From a virus (Duplodnaviria > Caudoviricetes), in the IMG/VR virus record IMGVR_UViG_3300027911_000015, positions 1 to 58,065 of that record: DNA of 58,065 bases; one strand, given 5' to 3'. Each line of letters starts with the position of its first letter. Positions within the stretch are counted from its first letter, which is position 1. Below, piece by piece: positions 28,284 to 44,140 of the stretch. A program made the position numbers and the translations under genes. The notes beneath the pieces were generated by a model. The model was not told the origin of the DNA. It ran no database searches and worked only from the letters and a program-made list of their open reading frames with translations.

Positions 28284-29180
28284 TTACTCGTCGTTAGCCA
28301 GCCTGTCAAAGAACTTGAGGTCTTCATCATCATCAGAAGTACCAACGATATCAGCATCAGATACCGCAGGCTTGGCAGTAGGTAGCTTACCCTGCTTGGC
28401 TTGTTCCACGGTTGTCTGTGGACGTTGCGTGCCATCACCATTCAGACCAAGAACCTTGTCAAGACGAGCCTTGAGGGCATCGTAGGACTTGAAGTTCTTT
28501 TCTGTGACCAGATCCTTCAGAGGATATTCGGACTTCCAAATCTTTTCCATCTTAGCGTCATCGGCAAGCAGGGGACCTGCATCAGCGAATTCACTCTTAT
28601 CGTAGTTCGGATATCCTTCAACCTTACGAATCTTCAGCTTGAAGTTCGCACCAGTCCACATATCGAATGGGTTGATAGGCGTTTCATCTTCAAACTCAGG
28701 ATTCATGGCGCTGGTGATCTTTTCGAAAATCTTCTTTCCGAACTTGAACAGGAACACCTTGCCATTGTTTTCTGGGTGCTTAGGATCTTCCACGATATAC
28801 ACGTTGGCAATGTAGGACAGCTTGCGCTTTTGCTTACGTGCGATTTCCTTGTTAGCTTCGACACCAGAATTCCAAAGAGTGCTGTTGTACTCCGAAACTG
28901 GGTCGTTCTTATTAAGGGTGGTCAGTGAGTTTTCGATGTACCATCCGCCTGGGCCTTGGAAACCATGCGAGAACATCTTGACCCACGGAAGGGCGTCATC
29001 ACCATCAACTTCGGGAGCAGGAAGGAAACGGATTACAGCATAACCGTTACCAGCCTTATCAACTTCAGGCTTCCAGAAATTTTCTTCCTTGGATTGACCT
29101 TCGCCTTGATTGAGTGCTTCGACTGCCTTGGTGAGTTTTTCGAGACTTGAGGACTTCTTGAGGTTTTGAAATGCAGACAT
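28284..29180 (-). CDS. gp32: Single-stranded DNA-binding protein (T4 gp32-like)
   Basis: DKAGNGYAVIRFLPA, HGFQGPGGWYIENSLTT, GANFKLKIRKVEGY.NYDKSEF, acidic tail. Confidence 0.96.
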   Translation of the reverse strand: MSAFQNLKKSSSLEKLTKAVEALNQGEGQSKEENFWKPEVDKAGNGYAVIRFLPAPEVDGDDALPWVKMFSHGFQGPGGWYIENSLTTLNKNDPVSEYNSTLWNSGVEANKEIARKQKRKLSYIANVYIVEDPKHPENNGKVFLFKFGKKIFEKITSAMNPEFEDETPINPFDMWTGANFKLKIRKVEGYPNYDKSEFADAGPLLADDAKMEKIWKSEYPLKDLVTEKNFKSYDALKARLDKVLGLNGDGTQRPQTTVEQAKQGKLPTAKPAVSDADIVGTSDDDEDLKFFDRLANDE

Positions 29181-29582: not shown

Positions 29583-30287
29583 TTAGTCTCCCAGTTGAGT
29601 CTTGAAGAATTCATAACGATTGAGGCGGGATTCGTGTGTTTCCTTCACGATATCCACACACCTCTTGCATAGCATAGGACTCACCTTCGACACATAATGA
29701 GTCTTGTGCTTTTCTTCCACTTCACCGCACATGGAGCAAAGGTAGTGGTTACCCGACCTGCGATTACCATACTTGTCTCGCTTGAGAATACCAGGATAGT
29801 AGAATTGCAGGTTGTTGAGGTAGCAATGTAGTTCTTCGAAGGTATTGAAAATCTTGGTGGTCTCCGCCTGCATCCAGCCAGGGACTTCCTTCAGGTCACC
29901 ATACGAGTTCACCATGAACACCGGCATGTCCATCATGAACGCTTCGTGAACCTCTGAGGTCGTTCCGGCACCTCGGCGCACAGATTCATCGTAGTAGATG
30001 ATGAGGGCATCAGTGTCGAACTTCAGAAGATTGATATCAGTTTCGATGAAGTGTACGCGAAGATTCGACTTGAATTGAAGGTGGTCGGTCTTAGAGTCAT
30101 AGTGATAGAGTTCTCCGTGAGCCTTAGCGTAGGCGATATCCAATGCTGCGATATCGATAGGGTAGTAACCCATCTCCTTCAGTTGAGGAGAAATCTCTGC
30201 GCGCCAACCTGTGCCCATGTTCTTGGCGAACTGCATTCCCCCACTGAGGTAGATCGAGCCATTAGGATACTTTTGATTATCTATCAT
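29583..30287 (-). CDS. Nucleoside 2-deoxyribosyltransferase-like / nucleotide N-glycosidase with C-terminal Zn ribbon
   Basis: IYLSGGM..WR, D..LL..DALIIY, GAGTTSEV..A; CSMC and CKRC. Confidence 0.7.
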   Translation of the reverse strand: MIDNQKYPNGSIYLSGGMQFAKNMGTGWRAEISPQLKEMGYYPIDIAALDIAYAKAHGELYHYDSKTDHLQFKSNLRVHFIETDINLLKFDTDALIIYYDESVRRGAGTTSEVHEAFMMDMPVFMVNSYGDLKEVPGWMQAETTKIFNTFEELHCYLNNLQFYYPGILKRDKYGNRRSGNHYLCSMCGEVEEKHKTHYVSKVSPMLCKRCVDIVKETHESRLNRYEFFKTQLGD

Positions 30288-30987
30288 TTTCCCTCACCTT
30301 CGTTTTTACAATTTCCTTGAACTTCATTTTATCATAGTTCACGAAAGGAGTATACTTCCTGATCCTTCTATACCAATCAGGAAAGATAATGTCATCATCT
30401 ACCTTCCGTTTCCACATGGGGAGGAAATCCATGAGGTCGTTCAGTATCACTACGGTTTCAATACTGATTCTACCACCCATCAATTCAGACAGCAATACAG
30501 GAAAGGTTCCATACGGAACTTTCAGCCAATCTACAGGTCTCCATTGCGTCAACATATAGTCCAAATCGTTGGAGAATCCATAGGTCAGCGATTGGACTCT
30601 CTTTTGCCATGCATTGTAATTAGACGCAGCATCGTCATTGAGTAGGTCACCTACCCATAGCTTATCGTTGATGATGAAATTGGAAACGAAGAAATTCTTG
30701 GCATCTTCCGCAGTGGTATACTTGCGAGAGAGTTTGTAGAAGAAATATTTGTGGCGGGAGTTCAGGAAAGAATCTTGCTTGTTCTTGGTCTTTCCGTTGT
30801 ACTTGAAGAAATCGTAGGAGTCGGTGGAGAAATGGAGTTTCAGTGCATTGAATAGACAGTAGGTCTCCCATCCACCGAATTCCTTGGGAGCCGTACTGAC
30901 GAAATCACTCTCCTTGCACTTGCAATTGAAAGTTAGTCCGCAGTAGTCACATTCCTGGTCAAACTCATCATCAGAAAGAATGCTCAT
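30277..30987 (-). CDS. gp59: Helicase loader (T4 gp59-like)
   Basis: ALKLHF...YDFFKYNGK, FFYKLSRK, FFVSNF, ISIETVVIL, KYTPF. Confidence 0.92.
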   Translation of the reverse strand: MSILSDDEFDQECDYCGLTFNCKCKESDFVSTAPKEFGGWETYCLFNALKLHFSTDSYDFFKYNGKTKNKQDSFLNSRHKYFFYKLSRKYTTAEDAKNFFVSNFIINDKLWVGDLLNDDAASNYNAWQKRVQSLTYGFSNDLDYMLTQWRPVDWLKVPYGTFPVLLSELMGGRISIETVVILNDLMDFLPMWKRKVDDDIIFPDWYRRIRKYTPFVNYDKMKFKEIVKTKVRENDR

Positions 30988-31595
30988 ACTTTATTTTTAC
31001 AATTATCGAAATGCCACCTAAACATGCCTGATCCTTTACCTGTAAATCCACAAATAGGACACGTATGAATTCTGTTTCCTATTATTTTACCTCCAATTTT
31101 CCCACCTATTTTTCCACCTTTTATTCCTCCTTTTTTACCCATGGAGGAGTACATTTCTGTAGTTGTATTTGCGGCCTTTCTTTTTCCGTTTTGTATGCGG
31201 TGTTCTTTTGTTATGACCTTTATACCCTTTTGTCCGCCTCGAACTTTGGCTTCTTTTGGAACACATCTTGCGGCCATTGCTTGGTGTTTTTTGTCTGTGA
31301 AGAATCTACGAAAAACGACCTTTGCTTCTTCTGAGGACATACCACACGAACTTTTTGTATTATTCATACATTGGGGTTGTCCGAAAACCTCAGAAATATA
31401 TTTTTCTTCTAATATTTTCAATTCTTCTTCAGAATTAGCAAATGACAATATCTCTCTTTTTAATTCAGATTTATCCTTTATACTTTTGATCCACAATCCA
31501 GAACCTAAGTATCCATCATCCATATTATTGGTCGAATGTCTGCCTCGGTAATATTTACCATTTATATGTGTAGTTTGATATATGAAGTGTATCAT
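30984..31595 (-). mobile_element. GIY-YIG (Seg-like) homing endonuclease with GGKI repeats and C-terminal C2HC zinc finger
   Basis: FIYQTT..NGKYYRGRHST..DDGYLGSG; GGKIGGKIGGK; CPICG..MFRWHFDNCK; low GC. Confidence 0.8.
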
Positions 31596-31819
31596 TCTTT
31601 GAAATGTAGACTACTGGTTTTCTTGAGTAGGTTGTTTTCTTCCGCTTCTTCGCGAATCTTAGCCTTCAAGGTAGGCGATAGCAGAGTCGCAGCGACTTCC
31701 ACTTCCAATCCCGTGACAGAACAGTGGTGCAGGATGGCATCCATCAGACCACACTTGAGTTCCCTCGATAGGTTCTCTATCATGAAACTGAAGGTCTTAA
31801 TTTCGTCGCGGGTTGGCAT
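31592..31819 (-). CDS. gp33: Late transcription coactivator (T4 gp33-like)
   Basis: FS..IE..MDAILHHC....EVE.AA.L.S..LK.KI..EA..N.L; T4 order 33-59-32. Confidence 0.88.
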   Translation of the reverse strand: MPTRDEIKTFSFMIENLSRELKCGLMDAILHHCSVTGLEVEVAATLLSPTLKAKIREEAEENNLLKKTSSLHFKE

Positions 31820-31827
31820 ATTACCTC

Positions 31828-32439
31828 TTATAGAATCGTGCTGGTGTAGAAAACGTGTCTACCAATGACCACGAACTGTTTCACGTTGGTCCATTGAGGA
31901 TTTACGTAGGAAGCATGGTAGAACAGAACATTGTATTTCGCTAGTGTAACGTGTGCCACGCCCTTTGTCAAGACATTCTTGGCAATCCACTTCGATTCTT
32001 CCCAATTGTAATAGTTCATCGAGCCAGGTTCGTGATGTTCACCGACCCAGGAGAACTGGTATACCTTGTTTCCTTCCAAGTCTGTTGTGGATTGGTATAC
32101 CACGGCACATATTGTTCCTGGGTATCCCTTCGTGTGCGTCCGATTCATGGTAACCTGAGCTACTGCCAGTTTACCTTCCATCGGTTCATTGCCTGCCTCA
32201 TAGTAGATATTGAGTGCCAGACATTCGATCTGTTTGCGTTCTTCGGCCTTTCTGTCACCGTATTCCTCTACAACCTTCGTGACCAGCTTATCTCTTTCTT
32301 GTGCTTCATGGTGTTGCGCGTGGCTTGTCATCGCCTTTTCGTATTGGTTCTGTGCAAAAAAGGTTGCGCCAGTCAAAAAGACCATGAGTCCTACGGTCAA
32401 AAGGAATGAATTGAGATACTGTTTAATTCGATTAAACAT
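31828..32439 (-). CDS. SleB/CwlJ-family cell wall hydrolase with N-terminal anchor
   Basis: CLALNIYYEAGNEP.EGK.AVAQV..NR, ICAVVYQ, QFSW, FYHA.YV.P.W, IGRHVFY. Confidence 0.9.
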   Translation of the reverse strand: MFNRIKQYLNSFLLTVGLMVFLTGATFFAQNQYEKAMTSHAQHHEAQERDKLVTKVVEEYGDRKAEERKQIECLALNIYYEAGNEPMEGKLAVAQVTMNRTHTKGYPGTICAVVYQSTTDLEGNKVYQFSWVGEHHEPGSMNYYNWEESKWIAKNVLTKGVAHVTLAKYNVLFYHASYVNPQWTNVKQFVVIGRHVFYTSTIL

Positions 32440-32510
32440 GATACTCCCTTGGTTGGTTTTTATTATTCGAACTTTGTTGAATTACTTGATACCATGATGG
32501 TAGTTGAAAC

Positions 32511-32850
32511 GCCAGTTTATGAGGAGCGTGGAAAACTGGCAAAACCCCGGAGTAATTTAGGCTGCGAGAGCCATTTCCTCAAAGAAAACGCTTTCGTTTG
32601 CGTTTAACGTTTTTGCGCTGTTTAACGTGAGTGCTTCACGATTCTCCGTATCGTTACTCGTCGCCCAATCGAAGCCTGGTCGTCCCCATTAGGAAGCATT
32701 TTAGTTTCAGATGCACAGTGGCGGGTCTGACTCCGGACACTTTCGCTTGCCTTTCGGCCCTAAAATGCTTTCTGGTGGAGACGGCGGGAATCGAACCCGC
32801 GTCTTGGACACCTTTCTCTCAACTTCCTTCCCCTAACGGGGTCTTTCGAA
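32511..32850 (-). ncRNA. ssrA: Circularly permuted (two-piece) tmRNA gene; outer ends approximate
   Basis: Acceptor piece ends GCGGG-TTCGATT-CCCGC-CGTCTCC-ACCA at 32773; 85-nt intervening segment; coding piece begins GGGGACG at 32687 (G3.U70 pair); tag frame 32601-32557 = ANESVFFEEMALAA*. Confidence 0.93.
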
Positions 32851-32857
32851 TACTGAA

Positions 32858-32957
32858 TCTCCGCGAGGAATTGAACCTCACGTAACCCTTCTTCCTGGCC
32901 TGCCTTCACCTTTGCGTCGGTGTTGGCTATCGGTGTTCCAGTGTAGTTACTCGGAGA
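32858..32957 (-). ncRNA. Unclassified tRNA-like structured RNA
   Basis: TCTCCG/CGGAGA closing stem stacked on T-arm TGAGG-TTCAATT-CCTCG; GTAAC/GTTAC helix enclosing nested stems; fills the intergenic gap. Confidence 0.6.
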
Positions 32958-32962
32958 AAAAC

Positions 32963-33376
32963 TTACGAGTGGATTTCACCCTTCTTGTCAATCTGCTCGA
33001 ACATCTTCTTCATCTTATCATCAGCCCATGCCATGACTTCTTGCTCATTGTTCTGAATCTCTTTGACCAACTCACCCTTCACATAAGGAGACAATTCGGT
33101 CTTTCTTGTTTCTTCGGCCAGATTCTTGACGCCTGCCACGAAACACCTCTTCGAGAGGTCTTGAATAATCTCTTCGTTCACACCACCAAGTTCGTGGAAT
33201 GTTCCCACTGTAGCCGACTGTAGGCAGCCGAGGTGATATGCAGTAACTCTATGGAAAAATACCATCTCCTGTAGAGTGACCCTGACTTCCTGAGGGGGAG
33301 AAGGTGCTTTTTCTTCCGCAGGAAACACAGAGAATGCAACGAAACCTAGTAATGCAGCAACCAATAGTTTCTTCAA
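32963..33376 (-). CDS. Secreted/periplasmic hypothetical protein; probable TTG start at 33376
   Basis: MKKLLVAALLGFVAFSVFPA signal-peptide pattern after GGGGG; the ORF-track ATG lies inside the promoter. Confidence 0.6.
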   Translation of the reverse strand: MKKLLVAALLGFVAFSVFPAEEKAPSPPQEVRVTLQEMVFFHRVTAYHLGCLQSATVGTFHELGGVNEEIIQDLSKRCFVAGVKNLAEETRKTELSPYVKGELVKEIQNNEQEVMAWADDKMKKMFEQIDKKGEIHS

Positions 33377-33403
33377 TTTACCCCCTACGCTGTCTGAATT
33401 GTT

Positions 33404-33432
33404 ACTATACATGAACCTGTAGTGGAAGTCAA
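33404..33432 (-). promoter_or_regulatory. Sigma70-type promoter TTGACT-N17-TATAGT
   Basis: Near-consensus; would drive the secreted protein, the tRNA-like element and the tmRNA. Confidence 0.7.
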
Positions 33433-33576: not shown

Positions 33577-33584
33577 TATTTATA
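33577..33584 (-). promoter_or_regulatory. T4-type late promoter TATAAATA
   Basis: Exact match 7 nt upstream of the ATG at 33569. Confidence 0.65.
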
Positions 33585-34239
33585 CCGAAAGGGACTCCTT
33601 GTAGATTTTGATTGATTCCAGCAGGTATTCCACATGGTCCTCTGTCTTTTCGATGAAAACCTGAGGCTTTTCACCAGTTACACCCATGAGAATCACGATT
33701 TGAGGCACCTCCACCCCCACCAACTCTTCAATCATGTATGAATATGCACAACATTGAGCGAAATAGTCAAGGACATACTCTCTTTTCTTGTGCTTGCGTG
33801 CGGTCTTGAAGTCAATGATGGACAACACACCATCATAATGAGCCACGCAGTCCACTCGTCCAGCCAACTGTAGAGCCTTCGAATACACCGCCTGTTCCTC
33901 ATACCAAATATCAGAGATTCGATTGAGGTGCGGCTTGATATCCAGAAACATTTCCTTCGCGTCTGGCATAGAGGTTCGCAAAGGCTTGTTGTTCAGATAG
34001 TCCTCGCATAAGGCGTGCATACCTGTGCCACGTCCTGATGCTGTCTTGATAATCTTGCGGGCTTCATCCTCACCCACCCTCTTTTTCCAGTCAATGATGC
34101 CTTGTTTCTTGCGAACACCAAGGACGGTGGTTACGGAAGGAACGCGAGAACCGTCCGGCAACGTATAGAAACGTTTACCGGACGGTAGGGTTTGCGATGG
34201 GATATCTTCGAGTATCAGGGGCGGACAATGATGAAACAT
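33580..34239 (-). CDS. PD-(D/E)XK exonuclease
   Basis: PSVTTVL, RGTGMH..CE.YL, AGRVDC..IIDFKT, YFAQ..AY. Confidence 0.88.
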   Translation of the reverse strand: MFHHCPPLILEDIPSQTLPSGKRFYTLPDGSRVPSVTTVLGVRKKQGIIDWKKRVGEDEARKIIKTASGRGTGMHALCEDYLNNKPLRTSMPDAKEMFLDIKPHLNRISDIWYEEQAVYSKALQLAGRVDCVAHYDGVLSIIDFKTARKHKKREYVLDYFAQCCAYSYMIEELVGVEVPQIVILMGVTGEKPQVFIEKTEDHVEYLLESIKIYKESLSV

Positions 34240-34245
34240 GATGTG

Positions 34246-34965
34246 TTAGAAACCTAACTTCTCCTTTTGCATGAGGTATTCACGAACAAATCCGGAACGG
34301 ACCACATCTTCCATACCAAAGGTGATGTGTGAGGTATTATCGATGCGGTCAAGAATCTGAACTGCTTGACCGAAACCCGATGATTCCTTTTTCGTATTCA
34401 AGTCCGTCTGTCTATAATCACCACAGAGAATGAATCGGCAATTCTCGCCAACGCGAGTCAACACCGTGTCAATTTCGTGGAATGTAGCCGATTGAAACTC
34501 ATCAAAGAACAGAATGGAATCGGTGAATGTCAGTCCTCGCAGAAAACTCGTGGTCTGAAACTGCACGATTTCCTTATGTAGCAGGAAATGCCACGCATCA
34601 CCGCGTCCAACCAGTTCATTGACAATCTGAATGTAAGGGTCTTGATAAATCTTCGACTTTTCTTCCAAAGTCCCCGGGACAAAACCTAGATCGCGGGATG
34701 GTACTGCCGACCGTATGATAACGATTCGGTTGTAATATGATTTGTCTTGCAACAGGTCATTCAGAGCAAGATACATTGCAAGGAAGGATTTGCCTGTTCC
34801 TGCACAACCTGACATGACTATGTTATTGCCTTTACTGTATTCTTGAAACGCTCTCTCCTGATTCCTTGTTAGCGGAGAGATTTTTTTGAGGGAGAAATGC
34901 TGTTTTTGTGCTTCGACCGCGGCTGTCTTCATTGCCTTGCCGCTTCCCTTTCGTGGTGATGCCAT
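34246..34965 (-). CDS. phoH: PhoH-family ATPase (start moved to MASPRK)
   Basis: GCAGTGKS, LGFVPG.LEEK, FLRGLTF, DEFQ, TRVG, GD..Q.D, DVVRSG. Confidence 0.95.
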   Translation of the reverse strand: MASPRKGSGKAMKTAAVEAQKQHFSLKKISPLTRNQERAFQEYSKGNNIVMSGCAGTGKSFLAMYLALNDLLQDKSYYNRIVIIRSAVPSRDLGFVPGTLEEKSKIYQDPYIQIVNELVGRGDAWHFLLHKEIVQFQTTSFLRGLTFTDSILFFDEFQSATFHEIDTVLTRVGENCRFILCGDYRQTDLNTKKESSGFGQAVQILDRIDNTSHITFGMEDVVRSGFVREYLMQKEKLGF

Positions 34966-35032
34966 TATTGCTCCTGTTATTATTGATGGGAAACAATTAC
35001 GAAGATGGCCTCCTTTCTCGAATACTACGTTG

Positions 35033-35314
35033 TTACCACTCTCTTGACGCCTTATGCTTATGTCCTTGGACCAGGGTGTTTCCAGGAACATTTCTCTTGA
35101 TTCTCTCGATGACACCCTTTTCGAAGGCATCATTGGCTTTGGTTACACCAGGTAAATCCATTCTCATCGGGTCACCAAGACCTGGCATTGTCTCTGTCGA
35201 ATGATACTGCTCCAGATCAGGATTGGCAACCTTGAATTGGTCAAGTTCCGACATACGCATGGTATGTTCGGTAATATCACCAGTAGTTACATTGCGAAAG
35301 GTATACGTGGGCAT
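35033..35314 (-). CDS. FmdB-like putative regulatory protein (Cys ligands absent)
   Basis: MPTYTF....TG...E..M.MSE pattern typical of T4-like phages upstream of phoH. Confidence 0.6.
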   Translation of the reverse strand: MPTYTFRNVTTGDITEHTMRMSELDQFKVANPDLEQYHSTETMPGLGDPMRMDLPGVTKANDAFEKGVIERIKRNVPGNTLVQGHKHKASREW

Positions 35315-35323
35315 TTTTGCTCC

Positions 35324-36781
35324 TTAGGTCCAAACTCGGAAATTCTCAAATGAACAGGGGTTCTTTGCATCATATTCACGATAGAACAATGAATTCTTGT
35401 CTTGATTAGGTCTCCAATCAGTCTTTTCGAAAGCAATGGGACCCAGATATGGATCAGCATACTTCAGAATGAAATCGTAAGGCATCGCCTCAGGCTCCAC
35501 ATAGCCACGATCTGGATTCTGGATTGCCCAGATGATTCCACCAAGCAATGCAGCACCAACTTGAATAGCCGTGGCGTTTTCACCAGGCACCAATTCGCGG
35601 GCTTCTTCGATACTCAACTGCGAGCCGTGCCATACTGCGAAATCATCGCCAATGAGCAATACGCCCAGTTCATCCATACCACCAACGATTTCGTCCTTGG
35701 CTATCCGAGTTTTGGATTGCAGATCAAGTTCACGGCCGCGAAGTTCATGGACAGATGCGATTGCAGCATCGCATGGCTGGTACACGTAGTATACAGAGGG
35801 ACGGAATTTGCCATCTTCTGTCTCGAAATACTGCGACATTGTGATGGATTCGCTGTGCTGTATACAAAACCCATTGTAACTTCCTCCTTGTGGAACCCAT
35901 GACTTCATGAGTACGGATAGACCTGGTTGTTTTAGATATGCGGCAGTGCCTTGTGATTCACCGTTTTCTGGCTTCTTGTTTTCGTGTGTTCCCCAGCCCA
36001 TTTCAGCAGGAGCCCGACCTTCGGCCCAGAATCCTTCGCAGGACCAGGTGTTCACGAATTCATTCTTTTCCTTTGGCTTATCAATTACCTGTGTGTCTCG
36101 TTCAGCAATATGAATCACCTTGACACCCAAATCACGCATTAGTTCCGCCCAACCTTCCTTGCTATAAGGAGGTAGGACATGATCTAGATCCTTGCGACCC
36201 TCTGCCAGTTTCAGCAAAGCCCGCTTGGTCAACTGCGTGACAAGACCAGGATTGGCTCCATTCGTTACAACCGCTGTCGCAGCATTCGGATACTCTGCGG
36301 CCATTTCACACACCACGGCGTGTGTATGGAAGAGAGTGCGGTCAGCAAGTTCGGGAATCTTTTCATCAGGCTCGGTGCCCCAACGTTCCAGTGAGGTGTT
36401 GGTATAGTGTACACCATTTTCCAGGCACCACTTGATGATGGATTGCGCTTCAATATTCAATGACACATCAATGACAAAGCCACCCTCTTCAGTATACTTC
36501 TTGAGGGTGGCTTCCAGATTACCAGGGAGAATTTCCTTACGGACATACTTGACGCCGTTATCACCGTTACGCTTGGTGAATACGTCCTTGTGGTCGTCCT
36601 TTTCAAGGACCGTGATTTGCGATGGCGAACGTGCGACGTGTTTGATTACAAGAGGAAGAATACATTGACCCACCGAACCATATCCGAGGATCAGGATCTT
36701 CTTGTCGTATTTTACAAACTTGTCTTTGTCAACGATTGCTTCGACCAATGCGGTCTTGAAGGCGCTATATGGCTTGCGCAT
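35324..36781 (-). CDS. hss: Homospermidine synthase
   Basis: ILGYGSVG, GANPGLV, IHIAERDTQ, EFVNTWS.EGF..EG..PAE.GWGTHE, H.ESIT, RPSVYYVY.PCD.A..S..E, GMDELGVL, NAT.IQV. Confidence 0.93.
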   Translation of the reverse strand: MRKPYSAFKTALVEAIVDKDKFVKYDKKILILGYGSVGQCILPLVIKHVARSPSQITVLEKDDHKDVFTKRNGDNGVKYVRKEILPGNLEATLKKYTEEGGFVIDVSLNIEAQSIIKWCLENGVHYTNTSLERWGTEPDEKIPELADRTLFHTHAVVCEMAAEYPNAATAVVTNGANPGLVTQLTKRALLKLAEGRKDLDHVLPPYSKEGWAELMRDLGVKVIHIAERDTQVIDKPKEKNEFVNTWSCEGFWAEGRAPAEMGWGTHENKKPENGESQGTAAYLKQPGLSVLMKSWVPQGGSYNGFCIQHSESITMSQYFETEDGKFRPSVYYVYQPCDAAIASVHELRGRELDLQSKTRIAKDEIVGGMDELGVLLIGDDFAVWHGSQLSIEEARELVPGENATAIQVGAALLGGIIWAIQNPDRGYVEPEAMPYDFILKYADPYLGPIAFEKTDWRPNQDKNSLFYREYDAKNPCSFENFRVWT

Positions 36782-43855: not shown

Positions 43856-43879
43856 TATGACTCCAGATGAGAATGGTTC

Positions 43880-44140
43880 TTACTTTTGGCTTGGAAATGG
43901 TGTGTCATCTAAGATCAAGCGGCTTTCCCGGATAGATCCTGGCGTGTCCTGGTGAGTCGCCGGCCACTGGAAGAACCCGACTCCAGTGATTTCCTCGTAT
44001 ACCTTTCGCATATCACTGCGAAGTACCTGCTTCTGATTCTCATCCATCAATCCGAAGGAATGGTCAAAACGGAGACACATTGAGTCTATTAAAGCCTCAG
44101 GAGGAACAATAGGTATAGTTACAAAAGAATCCGATTTCAT
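43880..44140 (-). CDS. Hypothetical protein
   Basis: SMCLRFDHSFGL..MRKVYEEI.G.GF pattern; coupled. Confidence 0.6.
   Translation of the reverse strand: MKSDSFVTIPIVPPEALIDSMCLRFDHSFGLMDENQKQVLRSDMRKVYEEITGVGFFQWPATHQDTPGSIRESRLILDDTPFPSQK

Follow-up and report, generated by a model that had tools for sequence, protein, structure and literature searches.

The two-piece form of transfer-messenger RNA (tmRNA), the product of a permuted ssrA gene, was reportedly described in Caulobacter by Keiler, Shapiro and Williams in 2000, and the permutations of Alpha- and Betaproteobacteria are held to be independent. Phages carry tmRNA genes as well. Buchholz et al. (2022; PMC9004378) described a two-piece tmRNA in Methylophilales phage Melnitz and, with ARAGORN, called 53 two-piece tmRNAs in 18,146 phage genomes; aquatic phages accounted for 50 of these, and of the Melnitz-like contigs, 17 of 47 had a permuted tmRNA. 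PMC11915505, in which 79 phage tmRNA sequences are counted and whose tmRNA database includes 11,946 permuted sequences, reports that the alpha, beta and cyano models were combined in 2025 into the Rfam family RF04321. Phage-borne one-piece tmRNAs are reported from mycobacteriophages of the Bxz1 group and from Bacillus phage G; these standard genes and the truncated one of phage DS6A, which consists of the tRNA-like domain only, are not permuted and belong to unrelated phages of Gram-positive hosts (PMC4131195). Here we describe a permuted ssrA gene on the minus strand of IMG/VR virus record IMGVR_UViG_3300027911_000015. The whole linear stretch of 58,065 nucleotides (58 kb), with a CheckV completeness estimate of 34%, is referred to as the window, and it is present in freshwater metagenome DNA runs. 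We consider it likely that this is a real and probably functional permuted ssrA of a lytic T4-like freshwater phage, which by sequence comparison would belong to a phage-borne family closest to the beta type and would represent no new permutation.

Over the 58 kb, ARAGORN called a single gene and no tRNA. This gene was a permuted tmRNA at 32466-32866 on the minus strand with the tag ANESVFFEEMALAA; its 3' tRNA domain was placed ahead of the 5' domain and the call was labelled 'Permuted'. The model RF04321 (tmRNA_permuted) scored 108.3 bits against a gathering cut-off of 47 (E = 3.2e-20), was aligned over its full length (1-213 of 213) to positions 32557-32829, and was the sole Rfam family at gathering level in the window. 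The parts of the gene are as follows:

32466-32866, minus strand: permuted tmRNA (ssrA) gene, ARAGORN span; comparison supports about 32851-32510
32773-32851, minus strand: acceptor piece, from sequence, ARAGORN and family alignment; 3' end at the encoded CCA (32773), 5' end approximate
32848-32851, minus strand: putative P2b strand ATTC of the acceptor piece, read by eye, pairing with GAAT at 32644-32641
32830-32841, minus strand: local hairpin CCCC-GTTA-GGGG, inside an insertion of about 20 nt that separates P2b from the remainder of the acceptor piece
32804-32810, minus strand: P2a strand TGTCCAA of the acceptor piece, 7/7 paired with TTGGGCG
32784-32800, minus strand: T arm GCGGG-TTCGATT-CCCGC, with a 5-bp stem and a loop of the TTCGANT type
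32773-32783, minus strand: acceptor 3' strand CGTCTCC (32783-32777), discriminator A (32776) and CCA ending at 32773
32688-32772, minus strand: intervening segment of 85 nt, presumably removed on maturation
32770-32760 with 32704-32694, minus strand: stem closing the intervening segment, AAGCATTTTAG with CTAAAATGCTT
32681-32687, minus strand: acceptor 5' strand GGGGACG, predicted 5' end of the coding piece at a putative RNase P site
32669-32680, minus strand: D-loop analogue ACCAGGCTTCGA, aligned to the RF04321 consensus with posterior 9 or asterisk
32662-32668, minus strand: P2a strand TTGGGCG of the coding piece
32641-32644, minus strand: putative P2b strand GAAT of the coding piece, 4 bp
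32626-32640, minus strand: hairpin CGTGA-AGCAC-TCACG at the PK1 position, upstream of the resume codon
32557-32601, minus strand: tag frame with the GCA resume codon (32601-32599), 14 codons (ANESVFFEEMALAA) and a TAA stop (32559-32557)
32511-32549, minus strand: predicted 3' pseudoknot region with CGGGG (32549-32545), then the hairpin GCCAGTTT (32540-32533) / AAACTGGC (32518-32511)

A first-pass annotation, made from the letters alone, had proposed a phage permuted tmRNA at this site, composed of an acceptor piece, an intervening segment and a coding piece. Its coordinates were all borne out on the minus strand, every element lying where it had been placed, and ARAGORN (a check that it had itself suggested), RF04321, the T4-like context and covariation agree on the gene. 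The acceptor stem that it had described, GGGGACG/CGTCTCC, is paired at all seven positions and, with G3.U70, A73 and the encoded CCA, provides an alanine identity set. The pairing of TTGGGCG with TGTCCAA is complete in the window and covaries in the family, and the GCA resume codon and tag that it had read recur in the ARAGORN call, the tag being identical.

A gp32 query yielded 80 related IMG/VR loci. ARAGORN called a permuted tmRNA in 30 of these, and two more, L005 and L006, were recognised by homology; many of the loci lacking an ARAGORN call are short, and absence there is not shown. The ssrA genes of these 32 loci are all located on the gp32 strand, 1.9-6.1 kb upstream of gp32. L005 and L006 have the gp32 closest to that of the window (78%) and a clear tmRNA homologue (L005:1500-1860, L006:5524-5881; RF04321 scored 96.7 bits on L005), in which the acceptor stem reads GGGCCCG/CGGGTCC, with G3.U70 kept, and P2a reads ATCGGA/TCCGGT. 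Exact and degenerate motif scans of the viral contig collection gave no closer relatives.

The structure alignment consisted of 31 rows (the window, L005, 28 other loci and Melnitz), and 32 pairs were scored in the acceptor stem, the T stem, P2a, P2b and the stem closing the intervening segment. Pairing was observed in 97.1% of the paired cells, compared to 77.4% in shuffles and 40-49% when the helix registers were slid by 1-3, and 25 of the 32 pairs had changed on both sides in a compensatory manner. None of 500 shuffles reached any of the five observed measures, a figure which is not a probability because the helices were derived from the same sequences and the rows are related; we regard the compensatory changes and the slid-register controls as the stronger evidence. 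The acceptor stem was paired at 7/7 positions in 31/31 rows, three positions covarying, and its third pair was G.U (G3.U70) in every row. The T stem was likewise 100% paired in 31/31 rows, with covariation in 4/5 pairs, and P2a was 99.5% paired in the family, all 7 pairs having changed on both sides. Seven pairs tested in the intervening-segment stem were 94% paired across the family and 6 covaried; the inner part of this segment is unconserved and its length ranges from 28 to 142 nt. In the window itself, the acceptor stem (7/7), T stem (5/5), P2a (7/7) and intervening-segment stem (7/7) are all fully paired. The alignment argues that the tmRNA helices are under clear selection.

P2b was paired at 6/6 positions in 24 relatives, with compensatory changes, and is shorter (ATTC/GAAT) in the window, L005, L018, L026, L049 and L071 (ATTCG/GAGAAT; read by eye). 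The CCCC-loop-GGGG hairpin, within an insertion of about 20 nt, is limited to the window and L005/L006, which have a common stem but different loops, GTTA versus ATATT (by eye); it forms in the minimum free energy (MFE) fold of the precursor. The PK1-position hairpin CGTGA/TCACG, which both RF04321 and RF01850 represent as a hairpin, shows one compensatory change relative to CGTCA/TGACG in L005. Differences between the window and L005 were compensatory in the acceptor stem, P2a, the PK1-position hairpin and the 3' hairpin alike. Column-wise pair counts for the last two were out of register in the alignment, and the 3' hairpin was recounted per sequence. The D-loop analogue GG..TTCGA is almost invariant across the family alignment, and 30/31 phage rows encode CCACCA, L062 reading CCACCG.

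The tag of the window comprises 14 residues (ANESVFFEEMALAA) and ends in ALAA. All 30 ARAGORN tags from related loci end in AA followed by a stop, and 29 of them begin with AN. In L005/L006 the tag ANDSVYTKELALAA, read by eye, retains the frame, the 14-codon length, the stop and the AN- and -ALAA ends, and it differs from the window tag by 2 synonymous and 5 replacement changes. In its middle, the 14-residue tag of the window differs from the 10-residue tags common among the relatives.

Downstream of the tag, the motif GRGKTTT is conserved in all 31 rows and is followed in 31/31 by a hairpin of 7-9 bp with a 14-16 nt loop, whose stems vary with pairing kept; in the window the loop of GCCAGTTT/AAACTGGC has 14 nt and begins with TCCACG. 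The loop start changes jointly with the upstream GRGG (GAGG or GGGG with CCTT, AGGG with TCCT, GAGT with ACTT; by eye), the stem changes between the window and L005 are compensatory, and the same motif occurs in bacterial alpha and beta genes. Motif and hairpin together fit the pattern of a conserved H-type pseudoknot and, because the GRGG/loop covariation follows this pattern, the closing hairpin would be a structural part of the coding piece. The hairpin that the first-pass annotation had seen as closing the gene is thus present at 32540-32511, but rather as stem 2 of a conserved pseudoknot, with no T run after it. A second inter-piece helix had also been proposed, between AAGACCCCG at 32845-32837 and CGGGGTTTT at 32549-32541. 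The complementarity is real on the minus strand, but comparison lends the helix no support: its 3' partner is the conserved GRGKTTT, the 5' partner occurs in the window and L005/L006 only, and there is no covariation. A scan of viral contigs for the 5' hairpin motif returned only L005/L006. An unconstrained two-strand MFE fold does form this 9-bp inter-piece helix but misses P2a, which is proven by covariation; for this reason the fold was given no weight either way.

Several observations weigh against assigning a functional permuted tmRNA to this site. All three lineage-specific Rfam models scored the window below their cut-offs, beta_tmRNA (RF01850) with 61.9 bits versus 84, alpha_tmRNA (RF01849) with 32.6 versus 50, and cyano_tmRNA (RF01851) with 31.3 versus 70, the last on the tRNA-like domain only. 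P2b of the window has only 4 bp and is interrupted by the inserted hairpin, so that its assignment there is a putative one, and a second pseudoknot stem for PK1 was sought in the window gene and none was established. ARAGORN misses the tmRNA of L005/L006, where the T loop is the non-canonical GGCAGTG versus TTCGATT in the window. A consensus scan found no promoter-like site directly upstream of the gene and called no terminator-like site after it, and among the listed sequencing runs holding the stretch none is recorded as RNA. Four of the runs yielded DNA contigs only, which say nothing about RNA ends. A fit with the SmpB and alanyl-tRNA synthetase (AlaRS) of the host is assumed.

With respect to lineage, the comparison with the alpha, beta and cyano models, which the first-pass annotation had likewise suggested, left the window below all three cut-offs, and the merged RF04321 passed. 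Among the three, beta_tmRNA was the best model in the window and in all 19 relatives scanned. It passed in 16/19 relatives (85.7-196.2 bits) and remained below its cut-off in L026 (80.6), L018 (72.5) and L005 (45), a pattern which argues against an independent permutation. The window and the phage family do not differ from the compared alpha and beta genes of bacteria in break point or piece order, and we therefore place the window gene as a divergent beta-like member of a phage-borne family and not as a separate permutation. The gene is beta-like and, by Rfam's rule, not a member of beta_tmRNA. The first-pass annotation had left its novelty as an independent permutation undecided. This novelty falls, as phage two-piece tmRNAs are published (PMC9004378), the Melnitz locus is shared and the family mostly passes beta_tmRNA. 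By titles and abstract openings, no freshwater beta-like phage tmRNA family was found in the literature; the sequence tables of PMC9004378 and PMC11915505 lie outside that scope and could list it.

A quick maximum-likelihood tree was calculated from 72 rows, namely 30 phage rows, the window and 41 bacterial permuted genes. The bacterial rows were selected by a pattern favouring short intervening segments, with a maximum of two per genus label, and include no cyanobacterial, SAR11 or Methylophilaceae genes. The window and L005 were sisters (SH-aLRT 100) within an all-phage clade of 21 rows (SH-aLRT 95), and a second phage clade comprised 10 rows (SH-aLRT 91). Rhodocyclales-type genes formed a clade of their own (98), and the phage genes do not nest inside it. 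The backbone was unresolved, with Melnitz on a long branch.

Rfam beta_tmRNA, which represents Rhodocyclales-type betaproteobacteria, shares with the window the gene order, break point, P2a, P2b and the PK1-position hairpin, and the resume context is similar. Some relatives of the window and beta_tmRNA bacteria also have the tags ANDERFALAA and ANDEKFALAA in common. In contrast to beta_tmRNA, the window has a tag of 14 instead of 10 residues, the hairpin insertion of about 20 nt in the acceptor piece and an intervening segment of 85 nt versus 24-41 nt in six genes of the Rhodocyclales clade. It lacks the terminal GC-rich terminator hairpin of Rhodocyclales-type genes. The CCA is fully encoded in the window, whereas the same six genes (among them L232, labelled Cupriavidus) read CCACCC or CCACCT, so that the last A is not encoded in them. 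CCACCA is encoded in three alpha rows, two Alcaligenaceae rows, L300 and L208. Alpha_tmRNA resembles the window in its permuted order and in tags of 13-14 residues (ANDN...LAA), and its 3' motif, GGGG followed by a hairpin loop with a CAACAGAA-like sequence, is common to parts of the phage family. The window lacks the T loop of the alpha consensus, GGCgGUA; its sister L005 has GGCAGTG.

The closest described counterpart is the SsrA of Melnitz (MZ577097.1, 45984-46436). Both phages are T4-like aquatic myophages with a permuted tmRNA, Melnitz belonging to the Kyanoviridae, and the gene occupies the same slot in both. In Melnitz it is preceded by PhoH, a PDDEXK nuclease and two small open reading frames (ORFs) and followed by the coactivator, the helicase loader and gp32, which is the order seen in the window. 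The late-transcription coactivator (gp33) of Melnitz is the next forward-strand gene after SsrA. RF04321 scored 113.4 bits on Melnitz and 108.3 on the window, and the 3' hairpin/pseudoknot motif is the same. Unlike the window, Melnitz passes alpha_tmRNA (106.7 bits), has the T loop GGCAGTA and an intervening segment of 142 nt, and carries a glutamine riboswitch directly after the gene; at Rfam gathering level no riboswitch was found in the window. The T loop GGCAGTG of L005/L006 resembles both the alpha_tmRNA consensus and GGCAGTA of Melnitz, and the differing T-loop types in sister genes hint at an exchange of the T arm.

By its gene set the window is a genome fragment of a T4-like myovirus of the virulent type. 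This set includes baseplate wedge and hub proteins, gp32, gp59, PhoH, a nuclease and a gp33-type coactivator, and the gene order around the tmRNA is PhoH, PD-(D/E)XK nuclease, ORF, ssrA, gp33, gp59, gp32. The tmRNA occupies a gap of 523 nt with a 149-aa ORF on one side and a cell-wall hydrolase gene on the other:

28284-29180: gp32
30277-30987: gp59 helicase loader
31592-31819, minus strand: gp33-like late-transcription coactivator (PF16805, 57.9 bits)
31828-32439, minus strand: cell-wall hydrolase gene, directly downstream of ssrA (PF07486, 73.6 bits; phrog_938)
32963-33412, minus strand: 149-aa ORF, directly upstream of ssrA
33404-33432, minus strand: sigma-70-like promoter sequence TTGACT-17-TATAGT upstream of the 149-aa ORF, a consensus-scan match at 10/12 positions and not evidence of function
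33580-34239: PD-(D/E)XK nuclease
34246-35133: PhoH

The 149-aa ORF had no PHROG match, no Pfam match and no relative in the viral contig collection. Against isolated phages, the gp32 of the window matched cyanomyophages best (up to about 65% identity, partial matches), and it was 53.6% identical to that of Melnitz over the full length. The promoter-like site at 33404-33432 is a possible source of a read-through transcript covering ssrA. In L012, L070, L074, L071 and Melnitz, the acceptor piece is immediately preceded by a promoter-like sequence TTGAC(A/T)-spacer-TATAGT/TATAAT, recognised by eye, which is absent at this position from the window and L005. Between gp33 and gp59, a 203-aa ORF (30984-31595, minus strand) matches a homing-endonuclease PHROG (phrog_314); since the equivalent region of L005/L006 lacks this ORF and is shorter by about 370 bases, the ORF is probably a mobile insertion. 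A 485-aa ORF at 35324-36781 on the minus strand, kept in L006, has both saccharopine dehydrogenase domains (PF03435, PF16653) and is possibly an auxiliary metabolic gene.

Beyond the gp32-related loci, blastn of the window gene against INPHARED gave only T-arm matches of about 40 nt in 3 records (2 of Caulobacter phage CcrPW, and Tunturiibacter phage Tunturi_4), and at that sensitivity no isolate had a close copy. With family member L060 as query, matches of about 70 nt were obtained in 6 Pseudomonas phage records; L024 gave none. The acceptor-piece/T-arm matches in CcrPW (MH588545.1, 140777-140818) and in several Pseudomonas phages of about 93 kb (PaMx31, SM1 and others) are unannotated and may represent tmRNA or tRNA-like genes. 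The match in Tunturi_4, a phage of the acidobacterium Tunturiibacter, lies at 43869-43909 and is unannotated as well. The 31-nt stretch of T arm and acceptor strand matched at least 120 genome loci, and every ARAGORN call among the matches listed was a one-piece tmRNA, from many phyla, for which reason this stretch is uninformative on the host.

Permuted genes of a similar kind were also seen in bacterial genomes. The Alcaligenaceae L220 and L246 (Advenella) and L255 and L256 (Pelistega) have permuted tmRNAs with the tag ANDESYALAA, and around the PK1-position hairpin they are letter-for-letter identical to several members of the phage family. Searches of three of these genomes (L220, L246 and L255) gave no standard tmRNA above cut-off, and the permuted gene may thus be the sole ssrA of Advenella and Pelistega. 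L300, a metagenome-assembled genome (MAG) labelled Cupriavidus, has a phage-like permuted tmRNA with the tag ANDEKFALAA beside a standard tmRNA at 216 bits; the former may belong to a prophage, represent a second allele or stem from phage DNA that was binned with this genome. In L208 and L270, two Acidobacteriaceae MAGs, ARAGORN called permuted tmRNAs that have tags of 28 residues and belong to none of the alpha, beta and cyano groups.

If the gene is functional, ssrA would be transcribed as one precursor, in which the intervening segment would fold as a hairpin extending the acceptor stem. Host RNase P would cleave 5' of GGGGACG, before G32687, and host 3' processing would trim to the encoded CCA at A32773, leaving an acceptor and a coding piece joined through the acceptor stem, P2a and P2b. 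The complex would be charged by host alanyl-tRNA synthetase via G3.U70 and A73 and delivered to stalled ribosomes by SmpB and EF-Tu of the host; SmpB is presumed to come from the host since the window has no SmpB gene. Translation would resume at GCA and append ANESVFFEEMALAA, the ALAA end of which corresponds to the usual degradation signal. A likely benefit to the phage would be that ribosomes are kept free when infection yields broken or stop-less mRNAs, and a benefit of ribosomes kept available during mRNA breakdown is also raised in PMC9004378.

The same RNA could instead act as a decoy or modulator that soaks up host SmpB, AlaRS or EF-Tu, or swaps the host tag, thereby damping or redirecting trans-translation and proteolysis. 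There is precedent in mycobacteriophage DS6A, whose tmRNA is reduced to the tRNA-like domain, a similar molecule being reported to inhibit tmRNA, perhaps by titrating SmpB (PMC4131195, PMC11915505); selective tagging of host proteins was raised as a possibility by Buchholz et al. (PMC9004378), and the middle of the 14-residue tag is unlike the common 10-residue tags of the relatives. Yet the full coding piece, resume codon, frame and ALAA end, for which a pure decoy would have no use, are all conserved, and the tag ends in an ordinary, unaltered degradation signal, so that we regard this explanation as unlikely. A decaying remnant, acquired from a host or from another phage and now unused, appears very unlikely to us. 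Its scores below all three lineage-specific cut-offs, the extra hairpin insertion, the lack of a promoter-like or terminator-like site of its own in the consensus scan, and the presence of a permuted tmRNA in only 17/47 Melnitz-like contigs (PMC9004378), which indicates that the gene is dispensable for that group, would fit decay. By contrast, all tested helices of the window are intact and the differences from L005 are compensatory; no stop interrupts the tag frame, and the sister gene matches its length of 14 codons and has the AN- and -ALAA ends.

A chance tRNA-like structure, or an attachment-site fragment of a host ssrA, is the least plausible explanation and highly improbable. Fragments of ssrA do occur in temperate phages, ssrA being a common integration site (PMC9004378), and the 31-nt T arm and acceptor strand are identical to those of many bacterial one-piece tmRNAs; however, the window gene has both pieces together with the tag frame and the 3' pseudoknot, RF04321 matches with E = 3.2e-20, the window is part of a T4-like genome of the virulent type, and no integrase family was found in 28 ORF scans (27 distinct ORFs, part of those in the window). 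A functional permuted ssrA thus remains our preferred reading.

The window gene, from an uncultured freshwater phage, is a divergent new example of the phage two-piece tmRNAs already described in 2022 rather than a novel invention. In this phage group ssrA holds a fixed slot, and its helices are under clear selection. Such genes can escape standard tools: ARAGORN does not call those of L005/L006, and none of the three lineage models reaches its cut-off on the window. The merged RF04321 recovers them. The phage ssrA clades at this locus mix lineage features: the window has a canonical T loop and its sister L005 one of the alpha type, and Melnitz passes the alpha model, most relatives the beta model. 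By exchanging parts, phages may spread the permuted form between bacterial classes, an idea that we put forward as a quite doubtful one. If it were true, the permutations of Alpha- and Betaproteobacteria need not all have arisen separately.

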